A DNA stretch of 64,000 bases, taken from contig JBDHZC010000006.1 of assembly GCA_039811685.1 (NCBI GenBank), positions 64,001 to 128,000 on the forward strand. Reading direction: 5' to 3'. Both the position numbers and the translations under genes were made by a program. Shown one piece after another: positions 7,501 to 34,655 of the stretch (positions are counted from its first letter, which is position 1; every line of letters begins with the position of its first letter). The stretch is from Armatimonadota bacterium (lineage in GTDB: Bacteria > Armatimonadota > UBA5829 > DSUL01). Below the pieces are notes generated by a model. The model saw only the letters and a program-made list of their open reading frames with translations, had not been told where the DNA came from and searched no databases.

Positions 7501-8408
7501 GTGTTGGAACCGTCGCCAACCCGGTTCTGATACGCACTATCTGGAATCGCCAAACTGCGAGCAATCCGACCCTGACCCTCGATATTCCTGTGGATGAAGG
7601 CAATCCCTACTTTCCGCCGAGCGCCGCCCATCCCTGGTTCCTTCAGATCTGTGATCAGTCTGCCTATGACCAGGGCACACTGCTGGAGTTTTCGATAAGC
7701 AGGAACGGGCGAACGTACGGTTCCTTCCAGACTCCCGCGGCGATAAACGATCTGACCTGTGTGACGGTGAGCGTTCCCTCCCAGACTCCGATTCGAATAG
7801 GCGACGCAAAACAGCTTGCCAACAACACCAGTTGCCTGCTGATGGACAAGATAGTGACGGCCGTGTTCGCCGATCGCATATACGTGCAGGAATCGGATCG
7901 CTCTTCCGCTATCTGTGTGCCAGGAGTCTTTGGAGTCACTGCGGGAGACTGCGTTTCTGTACTGGGCGCAGTTGATCTGATGGGGTGCGAGCGGATTGTA
8001 AATGCGGCTCAGGTGCAGAAGACGGCGCAGGGATCCTGGCCGGTGCGCCCGCTGTTCATCGGAGGCAGGAATGTGGGTGGTGAGCCGCTGTCACCCGTGA
8101 CTCCAGGCTTTGCAGATTCAATTGACCTCAACAACATAGGGTTGCTGGTCACTGTGTCCGGCACGGTACGAAAAACTGATGCAGGCTGGTTCTATGTGGA
8201 TGATGGAACTGCGGCGCCAGACGGCAGCGGGTACGGCGGCATACGCGTGGCCGCCGATGTGCTACAGATACCTCAGACTGGAGCGTTTGTTACCGTGACA
8301 GGAATCTCCAACTGCAGAGACTCTGGCTTTGGCGCAGCGCGCATCATCTATCCAAGATCGCAGGAGGACATTGTAGTTCTCCATGACGCACCCTCACCGC
8401 AACCGTAG
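4560..8408 (+). CDS. Secreted S8 subtilase (KP-43-like) with PPC, carboxypeptidase-regulatory-like, CUB-like and P-like domains plus the shared C-terminal domain
   Basis: Triad DTG, HGHGTHVSG, GTSMATP; FAAGNDG, PGTAKNCITVGA, SSRGP.EDGRIKPD; GTG at 4560 gives a signal peptide (ORF is open from 4368). Confidence 0.92.
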   Translation: MTPKPGALTGFLVVLGTALLCTRAIALPVLLKSGAFDPARSSVHLQSTPTDSYYLVQFSSAPGAAERQALEEADATILGYIPENCYLVQAQPQAMLAAGQIPGVVWTGPYASAYRIAPSVPNTDAPVHISVTTFPGVSVKKLIAQMGLSRESLIALSASDSGDIFSVKATGAQAHAWTRLAGVRWIQPRIQPKLANDIARGIMNVNPVWTDVGLYGQGQTVAVCDTGLDVGATSPLLDIDFQGRVSAAFALGRTGLTDDPHGHGTHVSGSVLGNGKLSGSDPSTHSYLNSYAGVAPEANLIMQSVLDANGNLGGLPANLATLFTQAYQAGARVHTNSWGATVAGVYDTDASQVDQFVWSHPDAVVLFAAGNDGVDADSNGVIDPQSVGSPGTAKNCITVGATESVRSSGGYQFQWGTGSWASNYPAPPIKNDLISDNSFGMAAFSSRGPCEDGRIKPDICAPGTNILSVRSHNPAAGTGWGSYNADYVYMGGTSMATPLAAGATALLRQYFQQVKGIDPSAALIKATLLVSARDLTPGQYGAGSSLEIPARPNNVEGWGRVDLQAAVNPAPPNTLQLEDYKAGLQTGEIRSFSFRIVTAGVPLRIALAWTDYPGDVSASKALVNDLDLQVHAPSGQVFAGNGTSDHANNVESVDIASPEIGTYTVTVSGYSVPHGPQPFALVAQGGLPNAALSGHITSTSGTPIPNAAITATSLSAVFTASSRPDGSYDIAVIPDDYSVEVSKNGWSFNPVSHSVTVPAEGAGNVDFVGTASPASISGSVFGAQTQQGSGTWQSVHPYLNNTNDSVTISGPANAVRMRVHFAQMATESGYDFVTISDSDGGSATSYSGNNNDFWSPWIDGNAVRVNLSSDVSVTRYGWLIDAFQATIPGSPMTGVTVTDSLSGISSVSGLDGSYVFPSVQPLPTTLSASIAEHVIKPSQRDIAPTPGQSVQGQDFVAIPEVPVIHVKLTHSYPGDLVIKTGVGTVANPVLIRTIWNRQTASNPTLTLDIPVDEGNPYFPPSAAHPWFLQICDQSAYDQGTLLEFSISRNGRTYGSFQTPAAINDLTCVTVSVPSQTPIRIGDAKQLANNTSCLLMDKIVTAVFADRIYVQESDRSSAICVPGVFGVTAGDCVSVLGAVDLMGCERIVNAAQVQKTAQGSWPVRPLFIGGRNVGGEPLSPVTPGFADSIDLNNIGLLVTVSGTVRKTDAGWFYVDDGTAAPDGSGYGGIRVAADVLQIPQTGAFVTVTGISNCRDSGFGAARIIYPRSQEDIVVLHDAPSPQP

Positions 8409-8448
8409 TGGACTGATCTGGATTTACGACACTGGCGTGAGCGCATCC

Positions 8449-8997
8449 CTAGAGCAACATCGCAGCGGCAATTACAAACGCTGCTGACCAGATCGCCACT
8501 GCAAGCTCTCGCAGGATGAGATGCGGCCAGCAGAGAACCGTTCCGGGCCCCTGGCATGGCCATCTGTGCGGAGCGGTATCGGAAGCCGCCACCTCACTAT
8601 ACTCACGCTCACGAGACCAACCCGGGTCTAAAGGAGCAGCCCTGCCCGGGCCAAAGATGAGCCAGACCGCAGACCCAACGGCCCCAGTAGCGACCGACAG
8701 CAGCAGCAGGCGCAGGCCAACGTGCGCTTGGGACGTCCACCTTAGAGCAAAACCCAGCAGTGCGGCGGCTGCAGCGCCTTTCCACATTCCAGCCAGAGCG
8801 TGATTCCAAAGATTCCTGGACAAAACTCGCAGCGGCCACACTCTATAGAATCCATTTACCAGCACAAACTCAGCCTTCTCGCGTTCATTGCGCGGAACGA
8901 AGAATCCCCTGTTTCGCAGAGCTTTTCGCATGCGCGCGATCTTTCCAGCCAGCCCGGGAGCCACCGCCGGGTCGATACCTGCGGGCAGTGGTTTCAT
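8449..8997 (-). CDS. Hypothetical membrane protein
   Basis: ATGA overlap with the upstream stop at 8994-8997; three hydrophobic segments. Confidence 0.6.
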   Translation of the reverse strand: MKPLPAGIDPAVAPGLAGKIARMRKALRNRGFFVPRNEREKAEFVLVNGFYRVWPLRVLSRNLWNHALAGMWKGAAAAALLGFALRWTSQAHVGLRLLLLSVATGAVGSAVWLIFGPGRAAPLDPGWSREREYSEVAASDTAPHRWPCQGPGTVLCWPHLILRELAVAIWSAAFVIAAAMLL

Positions 8998-10208: not shown

Positions 10209-10459
10209 AGCTCCCTCTGCCAGAAGCGTCATCGTACTGAACCTGATTCCACGCGGGGACCTAACGACGCTCCATCGCTTTACCCCCATCCGCGGCTACC
10301 GTGCCGAGCAGATCATAGGCTGGTTTACTACGCACGGCAAGAGCTTCTGCGCCGATTACCAGACAGGCTCCACTCCTCGAGGAGCTGCAGGAACGCGAAG
10401 AAAGCATGCGCGGCGCACTCCAGGGGAAGTTTGCGGTAATCACGGGCGGCGCTGGCGCC

Positions 10460-12622: not shown

Positions 12623-12716
12623 GGCCTCCTTCCTGTGAAAGACTTCGGCTGCACACCGATGCGCACTTTGCCCTGCCGCGTAGATATGTTACACTGAAGC
12701 TGGAGAGGAATGTAAT

Positions 12717-15176
12717 ATGATTCGACTCTACCCTCTGATACTGGCCCTTGCAGGGGTATTGTGGTCTGCGCCCGCTCACGCGCTTCTTGTGTGTCTGGAC
12801 GCCGGCGCCCCGATCAACGAAAGCACTGGCCAGATTCAACTCAACGCGGCAGCGCTGAAGGCTACCGGCACGCAGTACGTTCGCGTAAACTTTATTCTAG
12901 GACCGTGGAGCAATCCCAATGACGCCACCAAACGCGGCCCGCAGAATATGAGCTGGAAGCAAACTTACGACCAGATCATCCACAGCCTGACTTCTCAGGG
13001 GATTGAGGTGTACGCTCTGATAGGTGCGCAGGCTGTCCACAGCTCGGCAGGCGGCAACTACAACAGCGATCAATGGGTCAATGACTACGTAGCAAACTTC
13101 ACCACCATCGTTGGCCAATTCAAAGATCGCGTGCGGGTTTACGAGTCTTTCAATGAACCCAACGACTGGGCCGGCGGCACAACCGCCCAGGTGCAGCCAT
13201 TCTGGTTTGCAAAGATGCTGCAAAACATCTACCTTTCGGTGAAGATCAATAACGGGCACCAGAGTGACCAGAGCTGGCAGGTAACGCTGGTGAGTGGGCC
13301 TGGCTTCAGCCACGACATGGACACCGTCGCCACTTACATGCAGCAGACCTACCAGGCGGGTATCAACCAGCTTTCGTGGACGTCAGTCAAGAACAGCTAC
13401 GGAACGTATCCGTTGGACGGCATCGGCTATCACATCTATGTCGCTCAGGGATCAACAGACACAACCACAGTCCGCAACGCTGTCAACAAGAACCTCAACG
13501 CAATCTGGAGTACAGTCAAGAGCTTTGAGGGGTCCAACACGCCTAAGAAGCTCTGGGTATCGGAGTGGAGCTGGAACACGGCATCGGTTTCAGAGAGTGG
13601 GCAGGCCAGCAATCTGACGACTGTGTTCAATCTGTTCAAAAGCGACGCACGCGTCGCGCTGGCGAGCTGGTTTCAGATTACGGACTTTGGGGCCTCCGAC
13701 AAGTGGGGGCTCTTTCGGGCGGGCGGCCTCACTGAGGCTAACAAGAAGCCGTCCTGGCAGGCCTTCCACGATTTTGCGGGGGCGCAGAACACTCCCGGCT
13801 CCATTACAGGCACAGTGCGTGACACACTGGGCAATTACCTGCAGGGTGTACAAGTAACCGCTTCGCCGGGCGCTTTCTCTACTACGACAGCGGCAGACGG
13901 AAGTTATACTTTATCTAATATACCTGTGGGAACTTATACTGTAGCTGCACAGAAGTTTGGCTACCGCCCTGGCAGTCAAGCGGTGAATGTGACATCGGGC
14001 ACAGCGGCAACGACCTCTTTTGTCCTGGGGTTACCAGCTACAGTCACATCTCCGGCCGGCGCAAAGCAGAGAACGGATGGGAGCTTCGTCAGACTGGACA
14101 ACGCAGTCGTGACCGCAAACTTTGCCGGAGACCGCATCTATATCGAGGCGGCCGATCGGTCCAGCGGCATCGGAGTAACCGGCGCGCAGGCGGCAGTGGG
14201 AGACCGCGTGAACGTGACGGGTACGATGGTAAGTGCCGACGGAGAGCGTGTGTTCACATCGGCCGGCGTTCAAGTGGTTGCCTCAGGCCAGCCTGTCCCT
14301 TTTCCGCTGTCTATGCGCAACTCCACCCTTGGGGGTGAATCATTTGCGGCTCAGGGAGGTGTTGTGGATAATGCGACCACCAATCCTGCCACTCCGGGCA
14401 TTGGGCGCAACAATGTGGGACTTCTGGTTACAACATGGGGAAACGTCACGTTTGTTGACGGTCCGGGTGCGTGGTTTTACATTGACGACGGCTCAGGGCT
14501 GAAAGACGGGTCTGGCCATGTCGGTGTACGGGTCGCGGCTTCCGGGCTCACTTTGCCCGCCGAAGGGAACCTGGTGCGCATCACAGGTATCAGCGGAGTG
14601 ACGCGGATTGGCTCCAACAATGCCAGAATTGTGAGGGCGCGGCAGCAGAGCGATATTGTAAGGCTCTACCCTCAAACGCTGGAGCCAATCGTCGGCAACG
14701 CCAGTTTTGAGGATGGAGCGCTTGCGCCCTGGAGCGCCTGCGGGTCAACGGATAACATTATTACGGGGACGTGGTTTGGTGGAATCACGGCGCACTCTGG
14801 CAATGCCTTCGCCGGCACGGCCACGAACGGAGGAGTGCGGTCCGGTGGCTACTACCAGACGGTGGCTGTGGAGCCGGGCACGTCCTGTGTGGCCAAAGTC
14901 TGGAGCGCGGTATTTCGAGCTGCCAATTCCACCACATCCACGCTGTCGCGTATCGGGATTGACCCGAGTGGCGGAACGAATCCCGCTTCAGCGAACATCG
15001 CCTGGTCCGCCTGGGACATGCAGAGCGCAGACTACACCTTCGTCTGGCGGCAACTCCAAACACCTGCGGTTACCTCGATTTCTTCTACTGTGACTATCTT
15101 TCTGGACTTTCAGCAAAGCGAAAGCGCGGGCTGGCATGTCAACTGCTTCGACGACGCAACGCTTGAGGTCCACTGA
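12717..15176 (+). CDS. Secreted clan GH-A-like glycoside hydrolase + carboxypeptidase-regulatory-like domain + shared domain + CBM-like domain
   Basis: Signal peptide; FNEPN acid/base, GYHIY, LWVSEW nucleophile; GNASFEDG...FDD jelly-roll tail. Confidence 0.8.
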   Translation: MIRLYPLILALAGVLWSAPAHALLVCLDAGAPINESTGQIQLNAAALKATGTQYVRVNFILGPWSNPNDATKRGPQNMSWKQTYDQIIHSLTSQGIEVYALIGAQAVHSSAGGNYNSDQWVNDYVANFTTIVGQFKDRVRVYESFNEPNDWAGGTTAQVQPFWFAKMLQNIYLSVKINNGHQSDQSWQVTLVSGPGFSHDMDTVATYMQQTYQAGINQLSWTSVKNSYGTYPLDGIGYHIYVAQGSTDTTTVRNAVNKNLNAIWSTVKSFEGSNTPKKLWVSEWSWNTASVSESGQASNLTTVFNLFKSDARVALASWFQITDFGASDKWGLFRAGGLTEANKKPSWQAFHDFAGAQNTPGSITGTVRDTLGNYLQGVQVTASPGAFSTTTAADGSYTLSNIPVGTYTVAAQKFGYRPGSQAVNVTSGTAATTSFVLGLPATVTSPAGAKQRTDGSFVRLDNAVVTANFAGDRIYIEAADRSSGIGVTGAQAAVGDRVNVTGTMVSADGERVFTSAGVQVVASGQPVPFPLSMRNSTLGGESFAAQGGVVDNATTNPATPGIGRNNVGLLVTTWGNVTFVDGPGAWFYIDDGSGLKDGSGHVGVRVAASGLTLPAEGNLVRITGISGVTRIGSNNARIVRARQQSDIVRLYPQTLEPIVGNASFEDGALAPWSACGSTDNIITGTWFGGITAHSGNAFAGTATNGGVRSGGYYQTVAVEPGTSCVAKVWSAVFRAANSTTSTLSRIGIDPSGGTNPASANIAWSAWDMQSADYTFVWRQLQTPAVTSISSTVTIFLDFQQSESAGWHVNCFDDATLEVH

Positions 15177-15314
15177 AAAATTCTTTCTACAAAAAACCAG
15201 TATTGCAAGTGATTGACAGCAACGGTCTCAAGTGGTAGCCTTGATTGATAATGCGGGAGGAGCCGGGGGATGGATCACATGTCCGAGCACGCCCCGCAAA
15301 GAAAGGGAGAAACG

Positions 15315-16079
15315 ATGAAAGCTTCTTTTAGCCTTCTGGTCCTGGCTGCGACTGCTGTGTGCGCTAACGCAGCGCCAGTCGTAACCACCACCCAGGGTAA
15401 TGACGGCGATCTGGCAAAAAGCCCCAGCGCGATTGATCTGATTGAAGGCAAGATTGCGACAGAGCTGCCCGGAGACAAGGGATGGCATCCAGCCAATAGC
15501 GACCCACTGGATAAGTTGCCAGCGTTCACTGACGGTCAGGGAATGCGCGCAACCGGTCTGACCGGTTTGCTGAACGACTTTCCAGGCCCGGGCACACCGA
15601 CCAAACTTATTCAGTACGATCTGAACTCTCCCACAGACATCTGGGAGATTGACGTGTTCTCTGGCAACAACGGCAGAGACGGCCGCGTGTTTCACACTTA
15701 TACGGTGGCCTTCTCAACAGACGGCGCCAATTACAGCAATCCGATCTACGTGCAGTCGCATCCCTCTGGCACTCTCAACAACGCGAACAACAATCAGTGG
15801 GCGAGAGTGTTGACGCAGCTCACGGATAGCGCCGGCCCGCTGGCGACTGGTGTCACCAACCTGCGCTTCAGCTTCTACGCAGTGGACAACACTCAGGGAC
15901 AGATGCGGGATCCGTTTGACGGTGTTAACCCGTTTACAGGTATTGACGACGGACTGGGCGCACCGATCTCATCTCCATTGATTCTCGAGATTGATGTGGT
16001 TCCGGAGCCGGCTTCCGTAGCCGCGATGGCCCTTGGGCTGACCGGATTTGCCGCGACCTTCCGCCGACGGCGCGCGTAA
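15315..16079 (+). CDS. PEP-CTERM protein
   Basis: AAGGGAG RBS, signal peptide, C-terminal VVPEPASVAAMALGLTGFAATFRRRRA. Confidence 0.93.
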   Translation: MKASFSLLVLAATAVCANAAPVVTTTQGNDGDLAKSPSAIDLIEGKIATELPGDKGWHPANSDPLDKLPAFTDGQGMRATGLTGLLNDFPGPGTPTKLIQYDLNSPTDIWEIDVFSGNNGRDGRVFHTYTVAFSTDGANYSNPIYVQSHPSGTLNNANNNQWARVLTQLTDSAGPLATGVTNLRFSFYAVDNTQGQMRDPFDGVNPFTGIDDGLGAPISSPLILEIDVVPEPASVAAMALGLTGFAATFRRRRA

Positions 16080-16850
16080 ATCCAGCGTTCAAGTCATGGG
16101 AAGCGCAGTGCCCACTCTGCGCTTCCCCTGCCGAAAGGAACAATCGATGAAAGGCTATTTTCTGCCGCTTGCTGCCGCTGTGCTGGCAGTATCTCTGAGT
16201 GCCCCCGGGATCACTGCACCCGTTGTCGTGACGACGCAGGGTGAGCTGGGCGATCTGGCAGCCGCCTACAGCACCACTGATCTGATCGAGGGAATGATCG
16301 CAACCGAGCTGCCTGGCGACAAAGGTTGGCATCCTGCCAACGCCGACCCCTTGGACAAGCTGCCGGCTTTCACTGACGGACAGGGCATGCGGCCAAGCGG
16401 CCTTACGGGCCTTCTGAACGATTTCCCAGGCGCGGGCACACCGACAAAGCTGATTCAATATCAGTTTGACAGCCCAAAAGACATTGACGAGATTCGTGTT
16501 TTCAGCGGGAACAAGAATAATACTGACGGACGTGTTTTTCACACTTACACTGCAGAGTTCTCACCCAACGGGATAGACTTCACGCCGCCGATCTATGTCC
16601 AGTCGCATCCCTCTGGCACTATTAACAATGACGCCGGAATATTCAACCACTGGCACAACGCGTTGACGCAGTTGACGGACGATTCCGGAAAAGTTGCTTA
16701 TGGCGTGCGCTATTTGCGACTCAAATTCTATTCCGTTGACAACACCGGTGGTCAGATGCGCGATCCGTTTGACGGCGAGAACCCGTTTACCGGTACGGAT
16801 GATGGATTGAGCGCAGGCTTTGTCTCTCCGTTGATTCTGGAGATCGACGT
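15375..16850 (+). repeat. Tandem duplication of a ~210-codon domain (about 15375-16000 and 16218-16850)
   Basis: Long identical peptide runs with mostly third-position DNA differences. Confidence 0.9.
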
Positions 16851-17493
16851 GTTCGGCGCCAACAGTGTTGCGCAGCCAGTTGCCACTATTGGCGAAGCGC
16901 GCGCAAAGCCGCTGGGGATGCTGGTTTCACTGAGTGACAAGGTTGTCACCAAGAGCGCTACAACCGAGTTCTTTATGGAAGAGGCGAACCGCAGCGCCGG
17001 AATCAGAGTAGTTTCTGCAGAGAACCCACCGGCAAACCAGAAGGTGTCGATCACGGGACAGATTGTAACCTCGTCCACCAACGGCGAGAAGTATCTGGAA
17101 GCCACGGGACAGCCTGCCACTGTTGGGGCGGCTGCGACAGTTGGCCCACTCGATATGCGAAACGGCGTCATCGGAGGTCAATCCGCAACTGGTAGCGCAG
17201 GGCTGGCGACAGATGGTCTTCTGGTCACGACATGGGGCAAAGTCACCGGCATTGATATTGGCAACAGCGTCGTGTACATTGACGATGGCAGCAATGCAGC
17301 CAACGATACGCCGGTCGGAACTTTAGGCGAGCAGGTCGCGGGGCTTAAGGTCGGTCCTGGTGATGTGTTCAGCCTCCTGCCGGGTCAGTATGTCGGTGTG
17401 ACGGGGATTTCCCGTCTGGACGCCGGCGGCCTCGGCATTATCCGACGCGTAGAGCCGCTGGACTTTGGCTCTTCTATAGTGAGTCTCGACTGA
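16147..17493 (+). CDS. Secreted paralog of the upstream PEP-CTERM protein ending in the shared C-terminal domain
   Basis: AAGGA RBS; N-terminal domain nearly identical to upstream gene (IATELPGDKGWHPAN.DPLDKLPAFTDGQGMR). Confidence 0.9.
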   Translation: MKGYFLPLAAAVLAVSLSAPGITAPVVVTTQGELGDLAAAYSTTDLIEGMIATELPGDKGWHPANADPLDKLPAFTDGQGMRPSGLTGLLNDFPGAGTPTKLIQYQFDSPKDIDEIRVFSGNKNNTDGRVFHTYTAEFSPNGIDFTPPIYVQSHPSGTINNDAGIFNHWHNALTQLTDDSGKVAYGVRYLRLKFYSVDNTGGQMRDPFDGENPFTGTDDGLSAGFVSPLILEIDVFGANSVAQPVATIGEARAKPLGMLVSLSDKVVTKSATTEFFMEEANRSAGIRVVSAENPPANQKVSITGQIVTSSTNGEKYLEATGQPATVGAAATVGPLDMRNGVIGGQSATGSAGLATDGLLVTTWGKVTGIDIGNSVVYIDDGSNAANDTPVGTLGEQVAGLKVGPGDVFSLLPGQYVGVTGISRLDAGGLGIIRRVEPLDFGSSIVSLD

Positions 17494-17519
17494 ACTATTC
17501 CTGAGCCGCTTTTCCTGCT

Positions 17520-17550: not shown

Positions 17551-17627
17551 GTACCGATGTTAAGGACTTCTTCAGAACGCCCGTCATACTCAGCAGAAGG
17601 CCTTCGAGACAACAGCAAAACAGGATA

Positions 17628-24982: not shown

Positions 24983-25012
24983 TTGACACGAGGGGCTTGG
25001 AGGCCGTAGAAT
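24983..25012 (+). promoter_or_regulatory. Sigma70-type promoter of nos operon
   Basis: TTGACA-18nt-TAGAAT. Confidence 0.7.
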
Positions 25013-25064
25013 TGGCGCGAACCACACGCGAGTGAGCATACGATAGAGTGGCTGTCGTATACTC

Positions 25065-25082
25065 TTGTGCATTTTTGCGCAA
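25065..25082. promoter_or_regulatory. Rex-like palindromic operator
   Basis: TTGTGCA-TTTT-TGCGCAA versus Rex consensus TTGTGAA-N4-TTCACAA. Confidence 0.45.
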
Positions 25083-25214
25083 AGGTCGCGATTCTATAGC
25101 AACCAAGTCCGGATGTCCGCCGGCAAAAGACCTGACACTTGTTCTTTCTGTCGTGGCAACTCTCCGCTGGCTGTCCGGAAGCGTCTTACCTCACGAAAGC
25201 AGAGGAGGAGTGAA

Positions 25215-27251
25215 GTGGCTTACGAGACTTCTGACAACAGCAAGACCTGGGCTGTCGTGGCAGCCATTGTGGTCGTTGTGTTCGCAGCGATTGGCTGGCT
25301 GATTTTTCGGCCAAGCGGTGAAGGCGGCGCACAGGGACCGGGTGGCGCTACCCTGACAAGAATGCCGGGTGACGCCAACTCCATTATCAAGAATCGCCAG
25401 ATGTCGCCTGAGGACGTTCTGGCGGCGCTGACAACCTACATGCCCTCCGGCAAGCATGACGACTACATGATGTTCGCCTCTGGTGGGCATGGTGGCCAGG
25501 TGCTGGTGATAGGCGTGCCTTCAATGCGACTGCTCAAGGTGATCGGGGTGTTCACTCCGGAGCCGTGGCAGGGCTGGGGTTTTTCGGAAGAAACCCGTGC
25601 CGTGATCAACGGCAAAGCTGGGGATGGCACTGATCTGTTGTGGGGCGACACGCATCACCCGGCCTTGAGTGAGACCAATGGCGAGTATGACGGCCAGTTT
25701 CTCTTCATCAACGACAAGGCCTCAGCGCGTGTCGCAGTCATCGATCTCCGAGACTTCGAAACCAAGCAGATTGTTAAGAACCCGCTGGCCATCAACGACC
25801 ACGGCGGCGCCTTTGTCACTCCGGACACCGAATGGGTTATTGAAGGCGGTCAGTATGCGCATCCTATCGGTGGAAAATACGCGTCCCTGGCTGATTACAA
25901 GAAATCCTACAGGGGGTTGGTCACCTGCTGGAAGTTCGATCGCAAGAAGGGCCGCATAGACCCGTCCAAATCCTTTGCTATTGAGTTGCCACCGTACTGG
26001 CAGGATCTGTCGGACGCCGGCAAACTTGTGAGTGACGGGTGGATATTCCTGAACTCGTTCAATACGGAGATGGCCACAGGCGGCGGAGAAAAGAAGGGCG
26101 GCGTCTGGTTTGAGGCCGGCACAACCCAGCGTGACATGGACTACCTGCACGTCATCAATCTCAAGAAGGCCATCGCGACAGCGGCTGCAGGCAAGACGAC
26201 CACCATCAACGGATTCCGGATGATCCCGCTGCAGACTGCAGCCTCTGAGAGCATTCTGTACTTTGCCCCAGAACCCAAAAGCCCGCACGGGGTGGATGTC
26301 ACCCCTGGCGGCGAGTATATGGTAGTCTCCGGCAAGCTGGACCCACATGTCACAATTTTCAGCTTCCAGAAGATGATGGATGCTATCAAGAACAAGTCAT
26401 TCTCCGGGAAAGACCCTTACGGCGTCCCGATCTTTGACTTCAAGAAGGTTGTGGAAAAGCAGGTGGAGTTGGGCCTGGGGCCACTTCATACGCAGTTTGA
26501 CGACAAGGGATACGCCTATACGAGCCTTTTCCTGGACAGCGCTGTGGCGCGGTGGTCACTGGGTGGGCCGTACGAAAAACTCCACTCAGATAAACCGTGG
26601 ACGCTCGTCAAGAAGATACCTGTGCAGTACAATGTCGGACATCTTGCCGCCGCGGAAGGTGATACCGCCAAGCCCGCCGGTCACTTCCTGGTCGCGTTGA
26701 ACAAGTGGTCGGTGGACCGGTTCGCTAATGTGGGCCCTCTTCTGCCGCAGAACCTGCAGCTCGTGGACATTTCCAATCCCGGCGATAAGATGCAGGTGCT
26801 GTATGACATGCCCATTGGAATCGGCGAACCTCACTATTCGCAAATCATCAAGGCCGACAAGATCAAGGCGTGGGACGTGTACCCTGAGATCGGATGGTCG
26901 CCTGTTACGCAGAGCAAGTCTCCAAAAGCCACGACTGTTGGCCAGGAGCGCATCGTGCGCAACGGAAATACTGTTGAAGTGTTCATGACGGCCATCAGGA
27001 GTCATCTGAACCCGGAGCATGTCGAGGTGAAGAAAGGCGACAAGGTGATCTGGCACGTGACGAACGTGGAGCGAGCGCGCGACGCAACGCACGGATTCGC
27101 GCTGTTCAATCACAACCTCAGCCTTGAACCGGGTGAAACGGAGACTATCTCCTTCACAGCGACGAAAGAGGGAGTCTATCCGTACTACTGCACGGAGTTC
27201 TGCTCAGCGCTTCACCTGGAGATGACCGGGTATCTTCTGGTGAAACCGTAG
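25215..27251 (+). CDS. nosZ: Clade II nitrous-oxide reductase
   Basis: CuZ His motifs DTHH, NDHGG, SPHG, PLHT, VGH, EPHY; CuA HGF...CTEFCSALHLEM; FASGGHGGQ; GAGGAGGAG RBS before GTG; no Tat motif. Confidence 0.97.
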   Translation: MAYETSDNSKTWAVVAAIVVVVFAAIGWLIFRPSGEGGAQGPGGATLTRMPGDANSIIKNRQMSPEDVLAALTTYMPSGKHDDYMMFASGGHGGQVLVIGVPSMRLLKVIGVFTPEPWQGWGFSEETRAVINGKAGDGTDLLWGDTHHPALSETNGEYDGQFLFINDKASARVAVIDLRDFETKQIVKNPLAINDHGGAFVTPDTEWVIEGGQYAHPIGGKYASLADYKKSYRGLVTCWKFDRKKGRIDPSKSFAIELPPYWQDLSDAGKLVSDGWIFLNSFNTEMATGGGEKKGGVWFEAGTTQRDMDYLHVINLKKAIATAAAGKTTTINGFRMIPLQTAASESILYFAPEPKSPHGVDVTPGGEYMVVSGKLDPHVTIFSFQKMMDAIKNKSFSGKDPYGVPIFDFKKVVEKQVELGLGPLHTQFDDKGYAYTSLFLDSAVARWSLGGPYEKLHSDKPWTLVKKIPVQYNVGHLAAAEGDTAKPAGHFLVALNKWSVDRFANVGPLLPQNLQLVDISNPGDKMQVLYDMPIGIGEPHYSQIIKADKIKAWDVYPEIGWSPVTQSKSPKATTVGQERIVRNGNTVEVFMTAIRSHLNPEHVEVKKGDKVIWHVTNVERARDATHGFALFNHNLSLEPGETETISFTATKEGVYPYYCTEFCSALHLEMTGYLLVKP

Positions 27252-27285
27252 GACTGTTCGGGAGCACCCTTACGAGACGCAGAAT

Positions 27286-27939
27286 ATGAAAAAACGACTG
27301 AATACAATTATCGGACCGCGAGTGCCGCCCGATCTCCAGAAACAAGACTCTCTGAGGTTTCTGCTCCCGACACTACTGTTGTCGCTTTCGGTGGTGTGCC
27401 TGCTGGTAAGTATCTCTCAGCCTTACTGGCGGCTGAAGCTGCACGCTCCCCAGTATCCTGGAGGGTTGTCCGTGCAGGTTTACCTCACCCACACCACCGG
27501 CGACGTCAAAGAGATTGACGGACTGAACCACTATATCGGGATGAAGTCTTTGTCGGAAGCGGCAAAGCTGGAGAGGTCCATAAGCGTCGCCGCTGTGCTG
27601 GTGCTGGCAGTTCTATTGCTGGGGGCGACATACGTTCACACACGGTGGGCGGTCTTGCTGGTCATCCCGTGCCTGATCTTTCCATTTGGATTTCTGGGGG
27701 ACCTGTACTACTGGTTGCGGGCTTTTGGGCTGAACCTCAATCCAGAAGCCCCGCTCAATCATGCGGTCAAACCCTTTGTGCCAACGATTCTCGGAGAGGG
27801 ATTCGTCGGGCAATTCAAGACAGTCGCATCCGTTGACAGCGGGTTCTACCTGGTGTGCATGGGTTGCGTGCTGGCGATTGCCGGGTTGTGGTTCCATCGC
27901 CTTGCGTACAAGCCTCTGCAGGACCAGGCCTTGTCGTGA
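27286..27939 (+). CDS. nosB: NosB membrane protein
   Basis: W.LKLHAPQYPGGL, EIDGLNHYIGM, four TM segments; directly follows clade II nosZ. Confidence 0.88.
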   Translation: MKKRLNTIIGPRVPPDLQKQDSLRFLLPTLLLSLSVVCLLVSISQPYWRLKLHAPQYPGGLSVQVYLTHTTGDVKEIDGLNHYIGMKSLSEAAKLERSISVAAVLVLAVLLLGATYVHTRWAVLLVIPCLIFPFGFLGDLYYWLRAFGLNLNPEAPLNHAVKPFVPTILGEGFVGQFKTVASVDSGFYLVCMGCVLAIAGLWFHRLAYKPLQDQALS

Positions 27940-30104
27940 GATCTGCTTTTCTTGCTGCGCTGCCAGTCGGCTTCGCGGCGCTTTTGTGCGCCGGGTCCCT
28001 CGGAGCCCGCACACTGACAGTCACACCTTCAGACAATCTCCAGGCTGCGCTGGCCATGTCTCGCGCAGGCGATACGGTGCGGGTTGTCGGCGGTCACCAC
28101 CAGGGCCACTTCAAGGTTTCTGTACCAATGACGCTGGCGGGTGAGAACAGCCCGATTCTGGACGGTGGTGGTCATGGCACGGTGCTTGCTATAGATGCGC
28201 CCGATGTCACCGTGCGCGGATTCCATCTTCGCGGAAGCGGCGACTCCCTGGATATGGAAAACTCCGGCATTGTCGTTCTGGCGCCGCGAGCCCGAGTTGA
28301 GAACAACACAATTTCTGATGCGCTCTTTGGCATCTTTCTGCGAAAGGCCGACGATTCAGTTCTCAGGAGTAATCAAATTACCGGCAAGGACCTGGATGTG
28401 CCACGCCGGGGAGACCTGATCCGCATCTGGTACAGCAATGGTGTGACAGTTGAGGATAACACCCTGAGCCAGGGGCGCGATGCGGTCCTCTGGTACTCAC
28501 AAGGCTTGAAGATTCGGCGCAACCGCGCCCTCAACAGCCGCTACGGGCTTCACTTTATGTACTGCGACGACGCAGACATCGAGGGCAACACTCTATCCAA
28601 CAACTCGGTCGGCATCTTTTTGATGTACAGCAGGAGACTGCGGCTGGTCGGCAACACGATCGCGAGCAACCGGGGTCCAAGCGGCTACGGTGTGGGTCTG
28701 AAAGATATGGACGATGCGTTGATTGAGAACAACGCACTCGTGGACAACCGCATCGGCATCCACACGGACAGTTCTCCAAGAGAGATTGACAGCATTCAGA
28801 CAATAGCGCGAAACCTTATCGCCTACAACGATGTTGGCATCAGCATCCTCCCAGATACGCAGCGCAACTACATAACCACAAACAGCTTCCTGGAGAACGG
28901 GGAGCAGGTGCAGGTGGCGGGATCCGGCCAGTTGCAGGGCAACATTTGGGCAGAGCGCGGCCGGGGAAACTACTGGAGCGACTACGCAGGTTACGACAGG
29001 AGCGGGCGAGGTGTGGGGGAGGTACCCTACCGATCGGAAAGTCTCTTCGAGAATCTCACACAACGAGCGGAGGTCTTGAAGGTGCTGGCTGGCAGCCCGT
29101 TCCAGGTAGCGCTGGACTTCGCGGCTCGCGCGTTTCCTGTGTTCAGACCTGCTCCGAAACTGACCGATCCCAATCCGCTTATGACGCCTGTGCTGCCGCA
29201 AGGCGTCCCGGCACTCCCGCGTAAACAGGGACGAGGCCTGGCTGGCACAGCAACTGGTCTGATGCTTGCGCTAGTTGCGATCGCTGGCCTGCCGCGTGCG
29301 CAGAAGGACCCTCGGCGTCCGAGACGTCTGCGCACACCGACCGCTGATCCACTCATCGAAGTGGAAGCTCTCACAAAAAGATTCGGCGCAATCGAAGCGG
29401 TCAAGGGCGTCTCCTTTGCGGTAAGACAGGGAGATGTCGTAGCTCTGTGGGGCCCAAACGGAGCTGGAAAGACCACCGTACTTCGATGTCTTCTGGGTCT
29501 GTTTCCTTTCAGTGGCCAGGTCAGGGTGGTCGGCGTAGATATGCGATCCAGAGGGCGTCTGGCGCGCAGGTTTATCGGATTTGTTCCGCAAGAGCTCAGC
29601 TTTCACGACAGACTCTCGACGGCGGAGACACTTGAGATGTACGCTCGTCTGAAGCACGCGCCGCTTGCCCGGGTTAAAGAGTTGCTTGAAACTCTCGGAC
29701 TGATGGAGCATCATCGCAAGAGCGTGCGCGCGCTGTCTGGAGGACTGAAGCAGCGGCTGGCTCTGGCGTGCGCACTGCTGTCGGACCCGCCCATTCTGCT
29801 GCTGGATGAGCCGACCTCCAATCTGGATCAGGCCGCCAGAGACGATTTTTTGAGTTTGTTGTCCGATCTGAGCCGCGCCGGCAAGACTCTGGTATTCACG
29901 TCACACAGACCCGAAGAGGTCGAGTCGCTTGCGACACGCATTATCCTGATGGAAAATGGCAAGATTGTCCGGGATACCCAGATCAAAGGAACTCCCTCTG
30001 AGGCGGTCACGGATGCGGATGCTCATTCTGAGTTGAAAGACGCCACAGATATTCTTGCGTCCGCGAACCCGAACGAGTGCGGCCTTGCTCTGGAGGGACA
30101 TTAG
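27936..30104 (+). CDS. nosD: NosD-NosF fusion (beta-helix, TM helix, ABC ATPase)
   Basis: RYGLHFMY, GNYWSDY; TM ATGLMLALVAIAGL; GPNGAGKTT, LSGG, LLLDEP, TSH; single ORF; GTGA overlap with nosB. Confidence 0.92.
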   Translation: MRSAFLAALPVGFAALLCAGSLGARTLTVTPSDNLQAALAMSRAGDTVRVVGGHHQGHFKVSVPMTLAGENSPILDGGGHGTVLAIDAPDVTVRGFHLRGSGDSLDMENSGIVVLAPRARVENNTISDALFGIFLRKADDSVLRSNQITGKDLDVPRRGDLIRIWYSNGVTVEDNTLSQGRDAVLWYSQGLKIRRNRALNSRYGLHFMYCDDADIEGNTLSNNSVGIFLMYSRRLRLVGNTIASNRGPSGYGVGLKDMDDALIENNALVDNRIGIHTDSSPREIDSIQTIARNLIAYNDVGISILPDTQRNYITTNSFLENGEQVQVAGSGQLQGNIWAERGRGNYWSDYAGYDRSGRGVGEVPYRSESLFENLTQRAEVLKVLAGSPFQVALDFAARAFPVFRPAPKLTDPNPLMTPVLPQGVPALPRKQGRGLAGTATGLMLALVAIAGLPRAQKDPRRPRRLRTPTADPLIEVEALTKRFGAIEAVKGVSFAVRQGDVVALWGPNGAGKTTVLRCLLGLFPFSGQVRVVGVDMRSRGRLARRFIGFVPQELSFHDRLSTAETLEMYARLKHAPLARVKELLETLGLMEHHRKSVRALSGGLKQRLALACALLSDPPILLLDEPTSNLDQAARDDFLSLLSDLSRAGKTLVFTSHRPEEVESLATRIILMENGKIVRDTQIKGTPSEAVTDADAHSELKDATDILASANPNECGLALEGH

Positions 30105-30934
30105 TGGATCCAAGCGTCGTCCTCGTACTGGCTCAGAAAGAGCTCAAAGACTCCTTCCGCAGCCGCTGGTTTGTCGTTTTTGCAGGAGTGTTTGCAGGGC
30201 TGGCGCTGGCGCTTGTGGCGTTCAGCATGTCAGGAGCGGCCAGCTACGGAATCTCCGGATTTGGCCGCACGGGGGCTTCGCTGGTCAACCTGGTGCTTCT
30301 GATTGCGCCATTGATGGGGTTGACTCTGGGGGCGCTGGGGCTGGCTGGAGAACAGGAGAGAGGTACGCTGGCGTATCTGTTAGCGCAGCCACTCGGAATG
30401 CTGGAGTTGCTGGTCGGCAAGTATTTGGGCATGGCGCTGGCGATTCTTGGCGCGTTGTCGGCGGGCTTTGGCGTCAGCGCGGTGGTCATTCTCGCCCAGG
30501 GCGGATATGCGGATGGCGGCGACTTTCTGGCTCTGATGATACTCTCGTATCTGCTGGCGCTCGTCAGCCTGAGCCTCGGATTCCTGCTGGCCAGCCTTGT
30601 GCGAAGCAGCGTGACGGCGCTTGGCGCGGCGTTATTTGTCTGGCTGATGCTGGTATTTGTGGGGGATCTTGGCCTTATGGGCACGGCATTGGTGCTGCGG
30701 TTTAAGATAGATACTCTTTTTGTTGCGGCGCTGGTCAATCCGCTGCAGGTTTTCAAGATGGCGTCAGTGATCCGGCTTGGCACTCAGCCGGAAGTTCTGG
30801 GTCCGGTTGGCGTCTATGCGTCGCGCACGTACGGGTCGCATTTGATGGCGCTTCTGGTAAGTATTCTGCTGGTCTGGATTGCGGCGCCACTGGCCGGGTC
30901 GGTGGCCTTGTTCAGCAGACGAGGCGCCGCGTGA
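30104..30934 (+). CDS. nosY: ABC permease NosY
   Basis: LAGEQERGTLAYLLAQP...GKYLG; multiple TM segments; operon position. Confidence 0.9.
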   Translation: MDPSVVLVLAQKELKDSFRSRWFVVFAGVFAGLALALVAFSMSGAASYGISGFGRTGASLVNLVLLIAPLMGLTLGALGLAGEQERGTLAYLLAQPLGMLELLVGKYLGMALAILGALSAGFGVSAVVILAQGGYADGGDFLALMILSYLLALVSLSLGFLLASLVRSSVTALGAALFVWLMLVFVGDLGLMGTALVLRFKIDTLFVAALVNPLQVFKMASVIRLGTQPEVLGPVGVYASRTYGSHLMALLVSILLVWIAAPLAGSVALFSRRGAA

Positions 30935-31395
30935 AGGCACGTTGGCTGGTGCTGCTTGCTCTGACGACGGCATTTCTCAACGCTGGATGCGCCCGCCAGG
31001 ACCCAACAGCCACACCGCCACAGGTGCGCTACGGACAGGACCCCTGCACCGAGTGTTCGATGATTATCAACGAGTCCAGATACGCTTCTGCGCTGGTGAC
31101 GGCAGATGGGCAAACGCTACTGTTCGACGATCTGGGAGAGCTTGGAGCTCACGCGAGAAAACTCGACAAACCACCGCTCATGGTGTGGGTGCGCGATTAT
31201 AGCCGTCCAAAAGAGGAAGCATGGCTGAAGGGCTCGCAAGCAGTGTTCGTTCAGAGTCCACAATTGAAAACCCCCATGGGATACGGATTTGTGGCTGTCG
31301 CTTCAGAAAGCGAGGCGAAAAATCTGGCCGTCGAGACGAAAGGGCGCGTTCTACGTTTGAAGGAGATCCTTTCTGCGGAAGAACAACTGCGCTGA
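30931..31395 (+). CDS. nosL: Copper chaperone lipoprotein NosL
   Basis: Lipobox LNAGC; CTECSMII, FDD, TPMGYG. Confidence 0.92.
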   Translation: MKARWLVLLALTTAFLNAGCARQDPTATPPQVRYGQDPCTECSMIINESRYASALVTADGQTLLFDDLGELGAHARKLDKPPLMVWVRDYSRPKEEAWLKGSQAVFVQSPQLKTPMGYGFVAVASESEAKNLAVETKGRVLRLKEILSAEEQLR

Positions 31396-31448
31396 GACAG
31401 AATTTTCCAGACATGGTATCTTGTCTGGAATCTTGTAAGGAGGAATGA

Positions 31449-31946
31449 GTGAAACTGAGTAACCCAAAGTGGGTAATGTTTGCGGCGCCAACAGTCTTGG
31501 CGATGGCATTGGTAGCGGGCTGCGGTGGCCCGAGCACGGAAAGCTCGCAGAGTGGGTCTTCGTCGTCTGGCTCTTCAACCAGCGCGCCAGAAACAACGGC
31601 TCCGTCGTCCACAGCTTCAACGCCTGCGGGTTCGACGACCACGGCTTCCAGCTCTTCAGCCAGTGATGAAGCCAAAGGCAAGGAGCTGTTCGGAAAGACA
31701 TGTGCGACGTGTCACGGCCCGAAGGGCGAAGGCATGCCGGGTCTGGGCAAGGACCTTATTACGAGCAAGTTCGTGAAGTCGGAGACAACCGACAAGCTGG
31801 TCGCTTTCTTGAAGGTGGGGCGCCCTGCGACGGACCCGCTTAACACGACCAAAGTTGATATGCCGCCAAGAGGCGGCAACCCGGCTCTCACAGACGATGA
31901 TCTGAAAGACATCGCTGAATACGTCAGACAGATGAATAAGGGCTAG
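31449..31946 (+). CDS. Monoheme cytochrome c lipoprotein
   Basis: Lipobox LVAGC, Ser/Thr-rich linker, CATCH, distal MPP; AGGAGG RBS. Confidence 0.9.
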   Translation: MKLSNPKWVMFAAPTVLAMALVAGCGGPSTESSQSGSSSSGSSTSAPETTAPSSTASTPAGSTTTASSSSASDEAKGKELFGKTCATCHGPKGEGMPGLGKDLITSKFVKSETTDKLVAFLKVGRPATDPLNTTKVDMPPRGGNPALTDDDLKDIAEYVRQMNKG

Positions 31947-31976
31947 AGCCTCTTACAAGGGAAAACGAGCCATTTG

Positions 31977-32007
31977 CGGCTGGTCGCACTTGCGGCCAGC
32001 CTTTTTT
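31977..32007 (+). terminator. Terminator of nos operon
   Basis: GGCTGGTCGCA-CT-TGCGGCCAGCC-T6. Confidence 0.75.
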
Positions 32008-32237
32008 GCCTGTCAAGTGCCACTGTCGCAATGAATCAGCGTGGCAAGCGACTGCAAATCGTGGAAGGGTTTCTTTGGAGTGTGAGGCGCCTGCCGAGGA
32101 TTTGTGGCGGTGGGCGGTGGGCCACTCCGGAGACGCGGAGAGGGCAGAGTCCCGAAAAAGCTTGTGTGGACCGGACTTCTGATGTATCCTTACTATAGTC
32201 ATCCACTAAGCGTAGTCCCTGCTGAAGGAGGTCCCCA

Positions 32238-34655
32238 CTGAAGTACCTGGCCTGTACCCTCGCACTTTTCTCTCTTCTTGGCATCACTCCCGCCTCGTCG
32301 AACCCTTACGGTATCGCCGGAGCAGGGCAACTCTCAAAGCTCGGCATGCCCGCCGGATGTCTTGAATACTCATGGGATTCTCTGGGCCCTTCCTCGCAAA
32401 TCGAGATGTGCCGGCCCAATCACTACTACGAATATCTCGGCATTGCGACGCGGTGGTGGGGCTGGAACCAGAATACAGGACAGATCAACAATCCCTCGCA
32501 GCTTGCCACATGGATATCCACACATCCGGGCAAGATATGGATCATTGGGAACGAACCTGATCTGAACAGCCAGGACGGCCTGACGCGCGAACAGTACGCG
32601 GCGATGTTCAAAACCTACTACGATTTCATTCGACCGCTGGATCCGAGCGCCAGGTTCGCTATTGCCGGAATTACCGGTGGGTCCAACAACTGGTCTCTGA
32701 ACTACAGCATCGAGTGGTACGGCTACGTTCTCAACTACTATAAGACTACCTACGGATATCCGATGCCTGTGGACATCTGGAACGTTCACTCCTACGCCGG
32801 GGCGATGCAGATTGAAGACCCGGACCAGCCGATTCGCGACTTTGTACAGCCCTTCGTCAACTGGTGTCACACGGTGGACAACGGTCGTTATGCGGGCGCA
32901 GAGGTGTGGATCACTGAAATGCCAATCGGTGAGTGGATGGGCGCTCTCAATCAGGAGTGGATCATCTGGTTTGCTGAGCGCTATCTTCCACGCCTGGAAC
33001 AGTCAGGAGTTTCAAGGTGGTTCTGGTTTATCTCACAGGCCTGGGATTCCTACACGAACGTTGGACTGGTAAACTCAAACGGGACAGTGTCTGCGCTTGG
33101 GCAGGCGTACGCAAGCCTCGCAAACAGCTATCCCAACCCTGTTCCACCTGTGGAGCCATTTGTTCCACAACCCGCGCCACAGTACTTTCAGGACAGCTTC
33201 AGTTCCGGAGGACTCAGTGACCCGTGGATGGTCAAGGCGGGCGTCTGGGTGACGCAAGGTGGAGCAATTCGACAACAGCGAGTAAATCCTGAGTTCGAGG
33301 GCGAAACGTGTGTGCTCCAACACCGGTATTCCGATTTCTCAGCGGACCTGGACATGCGTGTCAACAACGCCACTGATACCGCAAACTGGGTTGGCTTCGT
33401 GTTTCGCATGAACGGGCGATTTGAGTCCATTACACGGAGCGGATACCTCGTTTACATGCGGCGCAACGGAGCAATCGGCCTTTATAACATCATTGACCAT
33501 ACCGTGCAGGAGATACCAGCCGCAGTAGCCGACGGATCGCAGTGGCAAAACTTCCGGGTTACCGTGGTTGGCTGGCGCATTCAGATCTGGGTGAACGGCG
33601 CGCTCCTGATAGACTGGACAGATACGAACCACCGCTTCGGTGAAGGGTATCTTGCGCTACAGGTCTACCGCACCGACAGCAGCTACCGCAATGTGCGCGT
33701 GACAAAGCTGCCGAATGGCCCGAGTGTTCTGCAGCCGGCCCTGACAAATAGCCAGGACACCCTTACGGCGTCCTGGGCGCTGGATCAGCCTCCCTGGGGG
33801 ATTACCGAAACGCAGTACGCTGTGGGGACTACTGCGGGAGGAACAGACACGCGGGGCTGGACCAGCGTGACCGGCAACACCCTCACCGCCACCAATCTAA
33901 GTCTGAATGCCGGCGCCAGATACTACGTTTCGGTGCGGTTCAAGGACACGTTCGGACTTTGGAGCAGCGCGGGTACTGGCGGTGGGACAACTGTTCTCCC
34001 GCCAAAGGGACAGCCCTCTCCGGTCGCCGCCGCCAAAATGAAGGCGGACGGGCAGCCCATTGAGCCGTTCATCGGTATTATCAGCGCGGGGACAGACGCT
34101 CTGGGGACCGTGCTTTATGTTCAGGACCTCGACCGCGCCTCTGGGATCCGGGTCGCGACGACAACTCCAATGACCGCAGGAACGGTTGTCAATGTGGCTG
34201 GAAAAGTAAGTAGTGTCGGCCCGGAGCGAACCATACTTCCAACCGGCATTACAGTGCTCGGCAGCTTGCCGCCACCCACCCCTTTACATCTTGCGGTGAT
34301 GAATGTTGGCGGCGCGGACTGGAAGAACAGCTCGGGCGGCGTCTATCAATATGGAGTTCCGCGCAGCCTGGCGCTGAATAACGTGGGTTTGCTCGTGAGT
34401 GTCTCCGGGCGAGTGACGGATTCGCGCGGATTTTCGTTGACGGTCTGGGACGGCTCCGCCTGGGATACCAGCAGTCCTCCGAAAGACATCTTCGGTTCAG
34501 ACGGAGTCCTGGTTGCGACGCGCGGCCTTGTGACGGTACCTCTGGGCGCAATGGTTAGAGTGACAGGAATCTCTTCGCTCAGAACAAGCGTTGCGGGAAT
34601 AGCGCCGCAGCTTCTTATCCGCACAGCCTCAGACGTGGAAGTGCTTACGCCCTAG
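32238..34655 (+). CDS. Secreted clan GH-A-like glycoside hydrolase + DUF1080/lectin-like + FN3-like + shared C-terminal domain
   Basis: GNEPD, WNVHSY, VWITE; AAGGAGG RBS then in-frame CTG giving signal peptide MKYLACTLALFSLLGITPASS. Confidence 0.8.
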   Translation: MKYLACTLALFSLLGITPASSNPYGIAGAGQLSKLGMPAGCLEYSWDSLGPSSQIEMCRPNHYYEYLGIATRWWGWNQNTGQINNPSQLATWISTHPGKIWIIGNEPDLNSQDGLTREQYAAMFKTYYDFIRPLDPSARFAIAGITGGSNNWSLNYSIEWYGYVLNYYKTTYGYPMPVDIWNVHSYAGAMQIEDPDQPIRDFVQPFVNWCHTVDNGRYAGAEVWITEMPIGEWMGALNQEWIIWFAERYLPRLEQSGVSRWFWFISQAWDSYTNVGLVNSNGTVSALGQAYASLANSYPNPVPPVEPFVPQPAPQYFQDSFSSGGLSDPWMVKAGVWVTQGGAIRQQRVNPEFEGETCVLQHRYSDFSADLDMRVNNATDTANWVGFVFRMNGRFESITRSGYLVYMRRNGAIGLYNIIDHTVQEIPAAVADGSQWQNFRVTVVGWRIQIWVNGALLIDWTDTNHRFGEGYLALQVYRTDSSYRNVRVTKLPNGPSVLQPALTNSQDTLTASWALDQPPWGITETQYAVGTTAGGTDTRGWTSVTGNTLTATNLSLNAGARYYVSVRFKDTFGLWSSAGTGGGTTVLPPKGQPSPVAAAKMKADGQPIEPFIGIISAGTDALGTVLYVQDLDRASGIRVATTTPMTAGTVVNVAGKVSSVGPERTILPTGITVLGSLPPPTPLHLAVMNVGGADWKNSSGGVYQYGVPRSLALNNVGLLVSVSGRVTDSRGFSLTVWDGSAWDTSSPPKDIFGSDGVLVATRGLVTVPLGAMVRVTGISSLRTSVAGIAPQLLIRTASDVEVLTP

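Follow-up and report, generated by a model that had tools for sequence, protein, structure and literature searches.

Four genes in the 64,000-nucleotide stretch of Armatimonadota DNA analyzed here (contig C6:64001-128000, hereafter the window) were found to share one domain of ~200 residues on otherwise different proteins. In structure prediction, this domain is a tandem oligonucleotide/oligosaccharide-binding (OB) fold. Its fold is known and its family is uncatalogued, and its probable role is that of a known kind of localization module built from a new part. Most likely, the tail is not an enzyme and holds its carriers on the slime layer of the cell that makes them. We tentatively propose, with slightly less than even confidence, that it acts as a non-covalent tether to an exosortase-linked exopolysaccharide (EPS) or protein layer.

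The shared part was aligned from the last ~200-250 residues of the translated open reading frames (ORFs) 4368-8408, 12717-15176, 16048-17493, and 32346-34655, all on the plus strand. The copies were 29-41% identical to copy 1, and 30 columns of the alignment were invariant. An earlier note, made from the DNA letters, had listed ordered motifs for the domain, and these are contained among the invariant columns. Hidden Markov model (HMM) envelopes, converted from contig to window coordinates, placed the four copies at the sites given in that note (7791-8380, 14040-14670, 16879-17490, and 34017-34652), with small differences at the edges. The carriers and copies are listed below.

4368..8408, plus strand: carrier 1, an S8 protease with Peptidase_S8, PPC, and CarboxypepD_reg domains and a tandem OB end (Pfam, translation).
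7797..8384, plus strand: tandem OB copy 1, ending 7 residues ahead of the stop codon (alignment, HMM).
12717..15176, plus strand: carrier 2, with a signal peptide, a presumed N-terminal barrel, CarboxypepD_reg, tandem OB, and a 168-residue tail (Pfam, translation).
14055..14669, plus strand: tandem OB copy 2, internal, the copy used for the AlphaFold2 model (HMM, AlphaFold2).
16147..17493, plus strand: carrier 3, with a signal peptide, a passenger without a Pfam family, and a C-terminal tandem OB (Pfam, translation).
16888..17487, plus strand: tandem OB copy 3 (alignment, HMM).
32238..34655, plus strand: carrier 4, from its probable start, with Glyco_hydro_cc, 3keto-disac_hyd, and tandem OB (Pfam, translation).
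34023..34649, plus strand: tandem OB copy 4 (alignment, HMM).

As the earlier note had stated, the domain is C-terminal in three carriers and penultimate in one, carrier 2, and the passengers differ among all four in Pfam searches. Two of its labels held in part. Signal peptides, claimed for all four, were found in carriers 2 and 3, and the real start of ORF 16048-17493 is probably the ATG at 16147. In carrier 1, a signal-like hydrophobic segment sits ~70 residues into the longest ORF, and the true start is uncertain. No signal peptide results from the ATG of carrier 4 at 32346; translation from a CTG in the same frame at 32238, which lies six bases downstream of AGGAGG (32226-32231), would begin with a hydrophobic, signal-like segment, and this CTG is the probable start. 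The label glycoside hydrolase, given to carriers 2 and 4, agreed with the Glyco_hydro_cc match in carrier 4. The N-terminal part of carrier 2 gave no Pfam match, CarboxypepD_reg being the sole family in the protein; going only by its motifs, we take this part to be a clan GH-A-like barrel.

The structure of the domain was predicted with AlphaFold2 from a 30-copy alignment, giving a model with a pLDDT of 89 and a pTM of 0.86. The model consists of two five-stranded blocks with a disordered joining loop at residues 98-109. The best Foldseek matches were tandem or single OB proteins (HIN-200, RMI2, Deinococcus SSB, RPA, and CST). In a second, Foldseek-independent structure search, each half aligned with solved OB domains with Z of 9.6-10.8 and a root-mean-square deviation (rmsd) of 1.6-2.0 over 71-88 residues: residues 85-205 matched AspRS-N (Z 10.5, rmsd 1.7 over 82 residues), and residues 1-83 matched AsnRS-N (Z 10.2) and YgiW (Z 9.6). 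Profile-profile comparison of the two halves gave a probability of 92% and an E value of 5e-7 over 51 columns, so the halves are homologous and the module arose by internal duplication. These results indicate that the domain, as modeled, is a tandem OB fold and a member of the OB-fold superfamily, in agreement with the two OB-fold-like halves first supposed from the letters.

At the level of sequence families, neither Pfam nor NCBIfam reached threshold, consistent with the earlier observation that no named family could be recognized. The four window copies gave no Pfam match up to E 10 except one chance-level match to DUF5818. The commonest Pfam match was PF01336 (tRNA_anti-codon), found weakly in 7 of 30 genome copies (best E 8.5e-5); with E values up to 10 allowed, it was still absent from all four window copies, which does not support membership in that family. 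An NCBIfam scan of the 30 copies returned only marginal ExeM/NucH and YgiW-type matches; those to ExeM/NucH (NF033681) were seen in 3 copies, with a best E of 0.056, too weak for membership. PDB chain 9sf8_A, the N-terminal region of an EEP nuclease, weakly matched the first half (E 0.058), and the sequence match to RPA14 was marginal (E 0.005). Among Pfam models, no carbohydrate-binding module family matched the four window copies or the 30 genome copies. SLH was matched neither in domain-only scans nor in whole carriers (the four of the window and 53 others scanned), and Por_Secre_tail was not matched in the same carriers. In the portions available to us of the full-text literature on Armatimonadota, PEP-CTERM/exosortase, and OB-fold secreted proteins, no description of the domain was found.

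Two further candidate families were set aside. Carrier 2 matched the Kustd1514-type anammox S-layer glycoprotein model (NF052345) with an E value of 2.2e-12, far below its 1400-bit cut-off; the match covers residues 356-516, that is, CarboxypepD_reg and the first ~70 residues of the domain, and is absent from the domain-only scans of 30 copies. DUF5689 is carried by 22% of the members of one protein-atlas cluster, but scanning the 30 copies against Pfam with E values up to 1 gave no match to it.

Polar and aromatic residues that are conserved among the copies map to the beta2 strand, the start of the beta2-beta3 loop (L23), and the beta4-beta5 turn of the barrels, the region that usually forms the ligand face of OB folds. 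Among 82 aligned copies, in the numbering of the carrier 2 protein, position 475 has an aromatic residue in 77 copies (63 with Y), R481 is found in 59, E510 in 70, D591 in 78, and S593 in 66. The domain is mostly acidic, with a median isoelectric point of 5.17 (below 6 in 60/82 copies) and a median net charge of -4. Because most copies are acidic, DNA was considered an unlikely ligand.

We then counted the domain in the whole genome. At the level of sequence, the resemblance among the four copies is far beyond chance, since a profile built from them matched 83 places in the 3.42-Mb genome. After one profile iteration, 84 stop-to-stop ORFs carried the domain, two of them short fragments. It lies within 7 residues of the stop codon in 71 of the 84, is followed by 13-38 residues in 3, and by 164-469 residues in 10. 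By our own hydrophobicity heuristic, 74/84 carriers have a signal-like N-terminus; of the other ten, one is the CTG-start gene, one is truncated by a contig end, and two are the fragments. One carrier has the domain straight after the signal peptide, upstream of an FGE-sulfatase domain, and one protein is composed of a signal peptide and the domain alone. The earlier note had named a match to a characterized catalytic or carbohydrate-binding family, a low copy number, and frequent occurrence in cytoplasmic proteins as observations that would speak against its proposal; we found no such family match, 84 copies, and carriers that are almost all exported.

The passengers were classified in a Pfam scan of 53 of the 84 carriers, with a family called at E ≤ 1e-5. 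At least one family was found in 33 of these and none in 20. The glycosidase-type passengers were GH39-like, GH10, alpha-amylase, GHL10, and arabinofuranosidase-like. Other enzyme passengers were S8 proteases, NAGPA, EEP, metallophosphatase, GSDH, and FGE-sulfatase, and there were also beta-helix domains, PQQ propellers, and the lectin-like Laminin_G_3 and F5/8-C domains. One way to read this range is that the tail acts as carbohydrate-binding modules or binders of extracellular DNA do: it would attach to some polymer that is common in the environment of sludge flocs and concentrate the enzymes there, independently of the producer's envelope. Oligosaccharides and nucleic acids are known ligands of OB folds, the structures closest to the domain bind nucleic acids (HIN-200, RPA, SSB, MCM-N, and AspRS-N), and the weak sequence links lead to EEP nuclease 9sf8_A and ExeM/NucH; in addition, binding modules typically occur in tandem and at variable positions, and many carriers are glycosidases. 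However, the protease, phosphatase, dehydrogenase, and FGE-like carriers have no common substrate, the acidic copies argue against DNA, and no characterized Pfam carbohydrate-binding family was matched. Environmental targeting would also leave unexplained the exchange with PEP-CTERM tails and the co-occurrence with exosortase described below, and we regard it as unlikely.

Similar positions and copy numbers were seen among relatives. Of 206 public relatives that have a full copy, 151 end in the domain (tail ≤10 residues) and 26 have 2-3 copies, often head to tail. Such positions bear on whether the tail is an outer-membrane translocation signal, like the C-terminal domain (CTD) of the type IX secretion system (T9SS), read by a class-specific machine and perhaps then removed. 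The extreme C-terminal position in 71/84 copies here and 151/206 relatives would suit such a signal, as would the dozens of unrelated secreted enzymes per genome, which recall T9SS cargo. Moreover, a TolC-like outer-membrane protein is encoded in the window and is evidence for an outer membrane, across which the cargo needs a route. Against this, the domain also occurs after a signal peptide, internally, and in 2-3 copies, a distribution more in keeping with a binding module than with a secretion signal that is cleaved off. A stable double barrel of 200 residues (pLDDT 89) is also large for a signal, and with three ordinary secretins in the genome, a type II route is open to the cargo. The neighbors of carriers did not reveal dedicated machinery, since strong enrichment was seen for one family only, the pilin-like DUF1559 (PorK/L/M/N, SprA, and PorU/V were not searched for). 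We therefore judge a translocation signal improbable. Members of the DUF1559 family lie within two genes of a carrier in 15 of 37 cases in this genome (hypergeometric p 3e-7). As partner or machinery, these genes were rejected: they are kept in five genomes that lack the domain, and an ORF with a prepilin-like motif was found in only 1/78 loci of other genomes.

Next, the taxonomic range of the domain was determined. Among representative proteins of clusters formed at 50% identity, the profile matched 6,388 with E ≤ 1e-3, of which 2,179 had E ≤ 1e-30. Wherever the source name of a relative states a phylum, it is Armatimonadota or Armatimonadetes. The 78 related loci, retrieved from species-representative genomes with a three-row alignment query, are titled Armatimonadota/Armatimonadetes (56), "bacterium" or "uncultured bacterium" (21), and Acidobacteriaceae (one), all of them from metagenome-assembled genomes (MAGs). 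In a phylum sample, 35/201 genomes matched; multiple copies occurred only in the window's own class, with single, mostly weak matches elsewhere. Within that class, 48/53 genomes matched at E ≤ 1e-10, most of them with 16 to >60 matches each and three with one to three. The expectation that the domain is lineage-specific and multi-copy was thus borne out, the expansion being confined to this class among the sampled genomes. Single distant relatives in other Armatimonadota classes have one or two internal OB modules (e.g., L192 1006-2970 and L194 1048-3228, both on the minus strand), followed by a C-terminal repeat pair that, read by eye from its motif, is presumably made of dockerin-like calcium-binding repeats. 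One distant relative shares a GHL10-type passenger start with carriers of this genome. The architecture of these proteins suggests that the role of the module may differ outside the window's class. As a separate observation, a short basic tail of 16-30 residues, with a recurring [N/S]PR...R near the end, follows the domain in P0107, P0131, P0116, P0135, P0158, and other relatives.

A link to a known surface-sorting signal was found beside carrier 3. The two PEP-CTERM genes of the window are as follows.

15270..16079, plus strand: PEP-CTERM sister gene of carrier 3, with a PEP-CTERM tail in place of the tandem OB (regular expression, alignment).
61952..62701, minus strand: second PEP-CTERM protein of the window (PF07589, E 3.2e-5; Pfam).

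The passenger of the sister gene is 68% identical to that of 16147-17493 up to a single junction. Beyond the junction, a PEP-CTERM tail is present in 15270-16079, and a linker and the tandem OB domain are present in 16147-17493. The passenger of 61952-62701 shows weak similarity to a portion of one carrier encoded on a different contig. A regular expression found PEP-CTERM tails in 59 ORFs of the genome, from which four were removed by eye as false, leaving 55; 13 of these have a passenger homologous to one in a carrier, and by the same expression none of the 84 carriers has a PEP-CTERM tail. Many PEP-CTERM tails directly follow a [F/Y]DD-type last strand. The 166-residue tail that follows the OB domain in a carrier on contig C7 (C7:164393-167215) is homologous (E 2.4e-11) to the passenger of a small PEP-CTERM protein (C4:335353-336030). 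By sequence comparison, the OB module is thus interchangeable with the surface-sorting PEP-CTERM tail. Two published reports describe exosortases as trafficking PEP-CTERM proteins to the cell exterior (PMC12188702) and a PEP-CTERM gene as linked to floc formation (PMC9850573). Separately, the tails of carrier 2 (14670-15173) and of three further carriers are 164-168 residues long and may, judged by length alone, be the domain seen in the C7 tail.

PEP-CTERM genes were also enriched beside carriers. Seventeen of the 55 PEP-CTERM ORFs lie within 500 bp of a carrier, compared with 5.8 ± 2.2, and never more than 15, when positions were randomized 500 times, and 21/84 carriers lie within 500 bp of a PEP-CTERM gene, compared with 5.8 ± 2.4, the random-placement null model being crude. 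This enrichment would be expected if the tail were a protein-protein assembly module, dockerin-like or self-associating, by which carriers join a scaffold, such as a PEP-CTERM jelly-roll protein, or each other in a multi-enzyme coat. OB folds often mediate protein contacts, as in the RPA, CST, and RMI cores, and distant relatives appear, by eye, to pair the OB module with dockerin-like repeats. By contrast, the neighboring PEP-CTERM proteins are heterogeneous, with no single enriched family, and the best paralogue of 4 of the 17 adjacent PEP-CTERM genes is the neighboring carrier itself, which makes a partner role less likely for those four. Since adjacency is also weak in other genomes (9/78 loci), such an assembly role seems very unlikely.

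Phylogenetic profiling had been proposed in the earlier note as a way to find co-occurring machinery; here the domain was profiled against exosortase. In the 53 class genomes, exosortase PF09721 was present in exactly the same 48 genomes as the domain, and five genomes lacked both. The five belong to three genera, with G108 and G209 from one family and G117, G153, and G230 from a second. Other members of both families have the domain and exosortase, which indicates at least two joint losses. The five retain 11-94 DUF1559 pilin-like matches each and are therefore not stripped of envelope proteins in general. In the genome studied here, all three exosortase genes sit in EPS-type loci with a polysaccharide export protein, a chain-length determinant/tyrosine kinase, a priming glycosylphosphotransferase, and EpsI, several of which scored below curated equivalog cut-offs. 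In addition, a CsaB-like polysaccharide pyruvyl transferase gene (L197 4103-5368, minus strand, contig C2), whose match (E 3.9e-22) is below the curated cut-off, lies ~3 kb from the exosortase gene in one such locus. CsaB makes the ligand of SLH domains in other phyla.

We therefore return to the tether as our preferred interpretation. A duplicated OB barrel would form a folded, non-catalytic module, which Sec-exported proteins would carry as a retention tag. The module may attach non-covalently to part of the layer outside its own cell; the likeliest target is a product of the exosortase-linked EPS loci, either the exopolysaccharide or the layer of PEP-CTERM proteins. Candidate binding sites are the conserved beta2/L23/beta3 faces of both barrels, at their Tyr, Asp, and Arg positions. 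In this way, the tag would keep proteases, glycosidases, phosphoesterases, and lectin-like proteins on or near the producing cell. A retention module is favored because of the variable position and number of the domain, its free-standing form, its exchange with PEP-CTERM, its co-occurrence with exosortase and EPS genes, and the conserved Tyr, Asp, and Arg. The earlier note had proposed a lineage-specific export or surface-attachment module: the lineage specificity, the signal-peptide proteins, and the diverse passengers were found as described, whereas export or anchoring is suggested by comparison, with attachment favored over export.

Several points weigh against the tether. The binding, the ligand, and the final location of the carriers are deduced from comparative evidence only, and a mostly acidic domain would be ill suited to an anionic polymer unless cations bridged the two. 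In distant relatives, the OB module is internal and the C-terminus is dockerin-like, so OB need not be the anchor everywhere. A PEP-CTERM-like ORF was found within ~4 kb in only 9/78 loci of other genomes, compared with an undefined background. The five genomes without domain and exosortase have 1, 1, 0, 0, and 0 S8 proteases, and this near-absence means that the joint loss may reflect a general loss of secreted enzymes and not a specific dependence. Finally, exosortase is present in 142/201 sampled phylum genomes but the expansion is found in one class, which makes exosortase at most necessary and not sufficient.

Among known systems, the SLH domain with pyruvylated secondary cell wall polymer (SCWP), which depends on CsaB, is probably the closest analogue for how the OB tail works. 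Both are non-catalytic modules placed at either end of unrelated exported proteins, in 1-3 copies, and SLH modules hold proteins non-covalently on a polymer made by the cell, their presence tracking the genes that make it. Unlike the OB tail, the SLH fold is helical; the co-occurring marker here is exosortase/EPS and not CsaB, and the host here has an outer membrane. A broader proposal follows the same analogy: an undescribed diderm form of surface display, in which the tail would recognize the polymer of exosortase-linked EPS loci and coat the class in 20 to >60 non-covalently held enzymes, as a counterpart of SLH-SCWP that is exchangeable with PEP-CTERM. We consider this possible but doubtful.

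The remaining systems share fewer features with the OB tail. The T9SS CTD (Por_Secre_tail) is likewise rich in beta structure, sits at the C-terminus, and is common to dozens of different secreted enzymes within one lineage. That domain is a single beta-sandwich of ~80-100 residues, strictly terminal and removed by a sortase-like step, whereas the OB tail has 200 residues, is non-terminal in 13/84 copies, and occurs in 2-3 copies in 26/206 relatives. PEP-CTERM/exosortase operates in the same genomes and exchanges tails on paralogous passengers, but its signal is a ~25-residue motif with a transmembrane helix and a basic tail, processed by a membrane enzyme, and the OB tail folds as a soluble domain. 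Most PEP-CTERM proteins of this genome have 200-320 residues, and most carriers are multi-domain enzymes of 450-1,400 residues. The nucleic-acid OB families (PF01336, RPA14/RPA32, HIN-200, and YgiW/BOF) share the fold of each half, and HIN-200 domains and Deinococcus SSB also have tandem OB pairs. Proteins of these families mostly reside in the cytoplasm or nucleus, and YgiW in the periplasm. In contrast to them, carriers are exported and mostly acidic, and the sequence similarity is marginal. Dockerins on non-cellulosomal enzymes are also small C-terminal modules common to diverse secreted enzymes; the dockerin fold differs, being a pair of calcium-binding repeats, and Pfam found none in the four window carriers.

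The domain marks an estimated 2-3% of genes in the whole class and thousands of public clusters, with no Pfam or NCBIfam entry. Soils, sludge, and sediments commonly contain Armatimonadota, and all genome records with carriers are labeled MAG. Defining the domain would give annotators a marker for the surface and extracellular proteome of the class and a concrete handle on the role of the poorly understood exosortase-linked EPS systems. If the proposed role is true, a whole Armatimonadota class would be coated by non-covalently held enzymes, alongside PEP-CTERM sorting, and the tail might serve as a modular tag by which enzymes could be anchored to a defined polymer.

Other genes of the window include the following.

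25065-31946, directly upstream of carrier 4: nitrous-oxide reductase cluster.
34838-35512 and 59329-60081, minus strand: prepilin-type DUF1559 genes (N_methyl + SBP_bac_10; family match).
36047-40940 and 60467-61858: rnpA, yidC, jag, and mnmE, then dnaA ~20 kb further.
45404-49693 and 50436-51431, minus strand: MacB-type ABC permease, HlyD-type adaptor, and the TolC-like outer-membrane protein, with an adjoining multiheme cytochrome.

The nitrous-oxide reductase cluster encodes NosZ-like (nos_propeller + cupredoxin), NosY-like, NosL, and cytochrome c proteins, and a 749-residue ORF joins NosD and a NosF-like ABC ATPase; this fusion may be real or may reflect a missed stop or start. The presence of rnpA, yidC, jag, mnmE, and dnaA indicates that the window spans a probable replication-origin region. 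Elsewhere in the genome, a five-member exported family with a C-terminal ENPACC motif was observed, three members of which adjoin carriers (p 7e-3); members lie at C8:119612-120460, C8:17011-18006, and C2:530398-531648.

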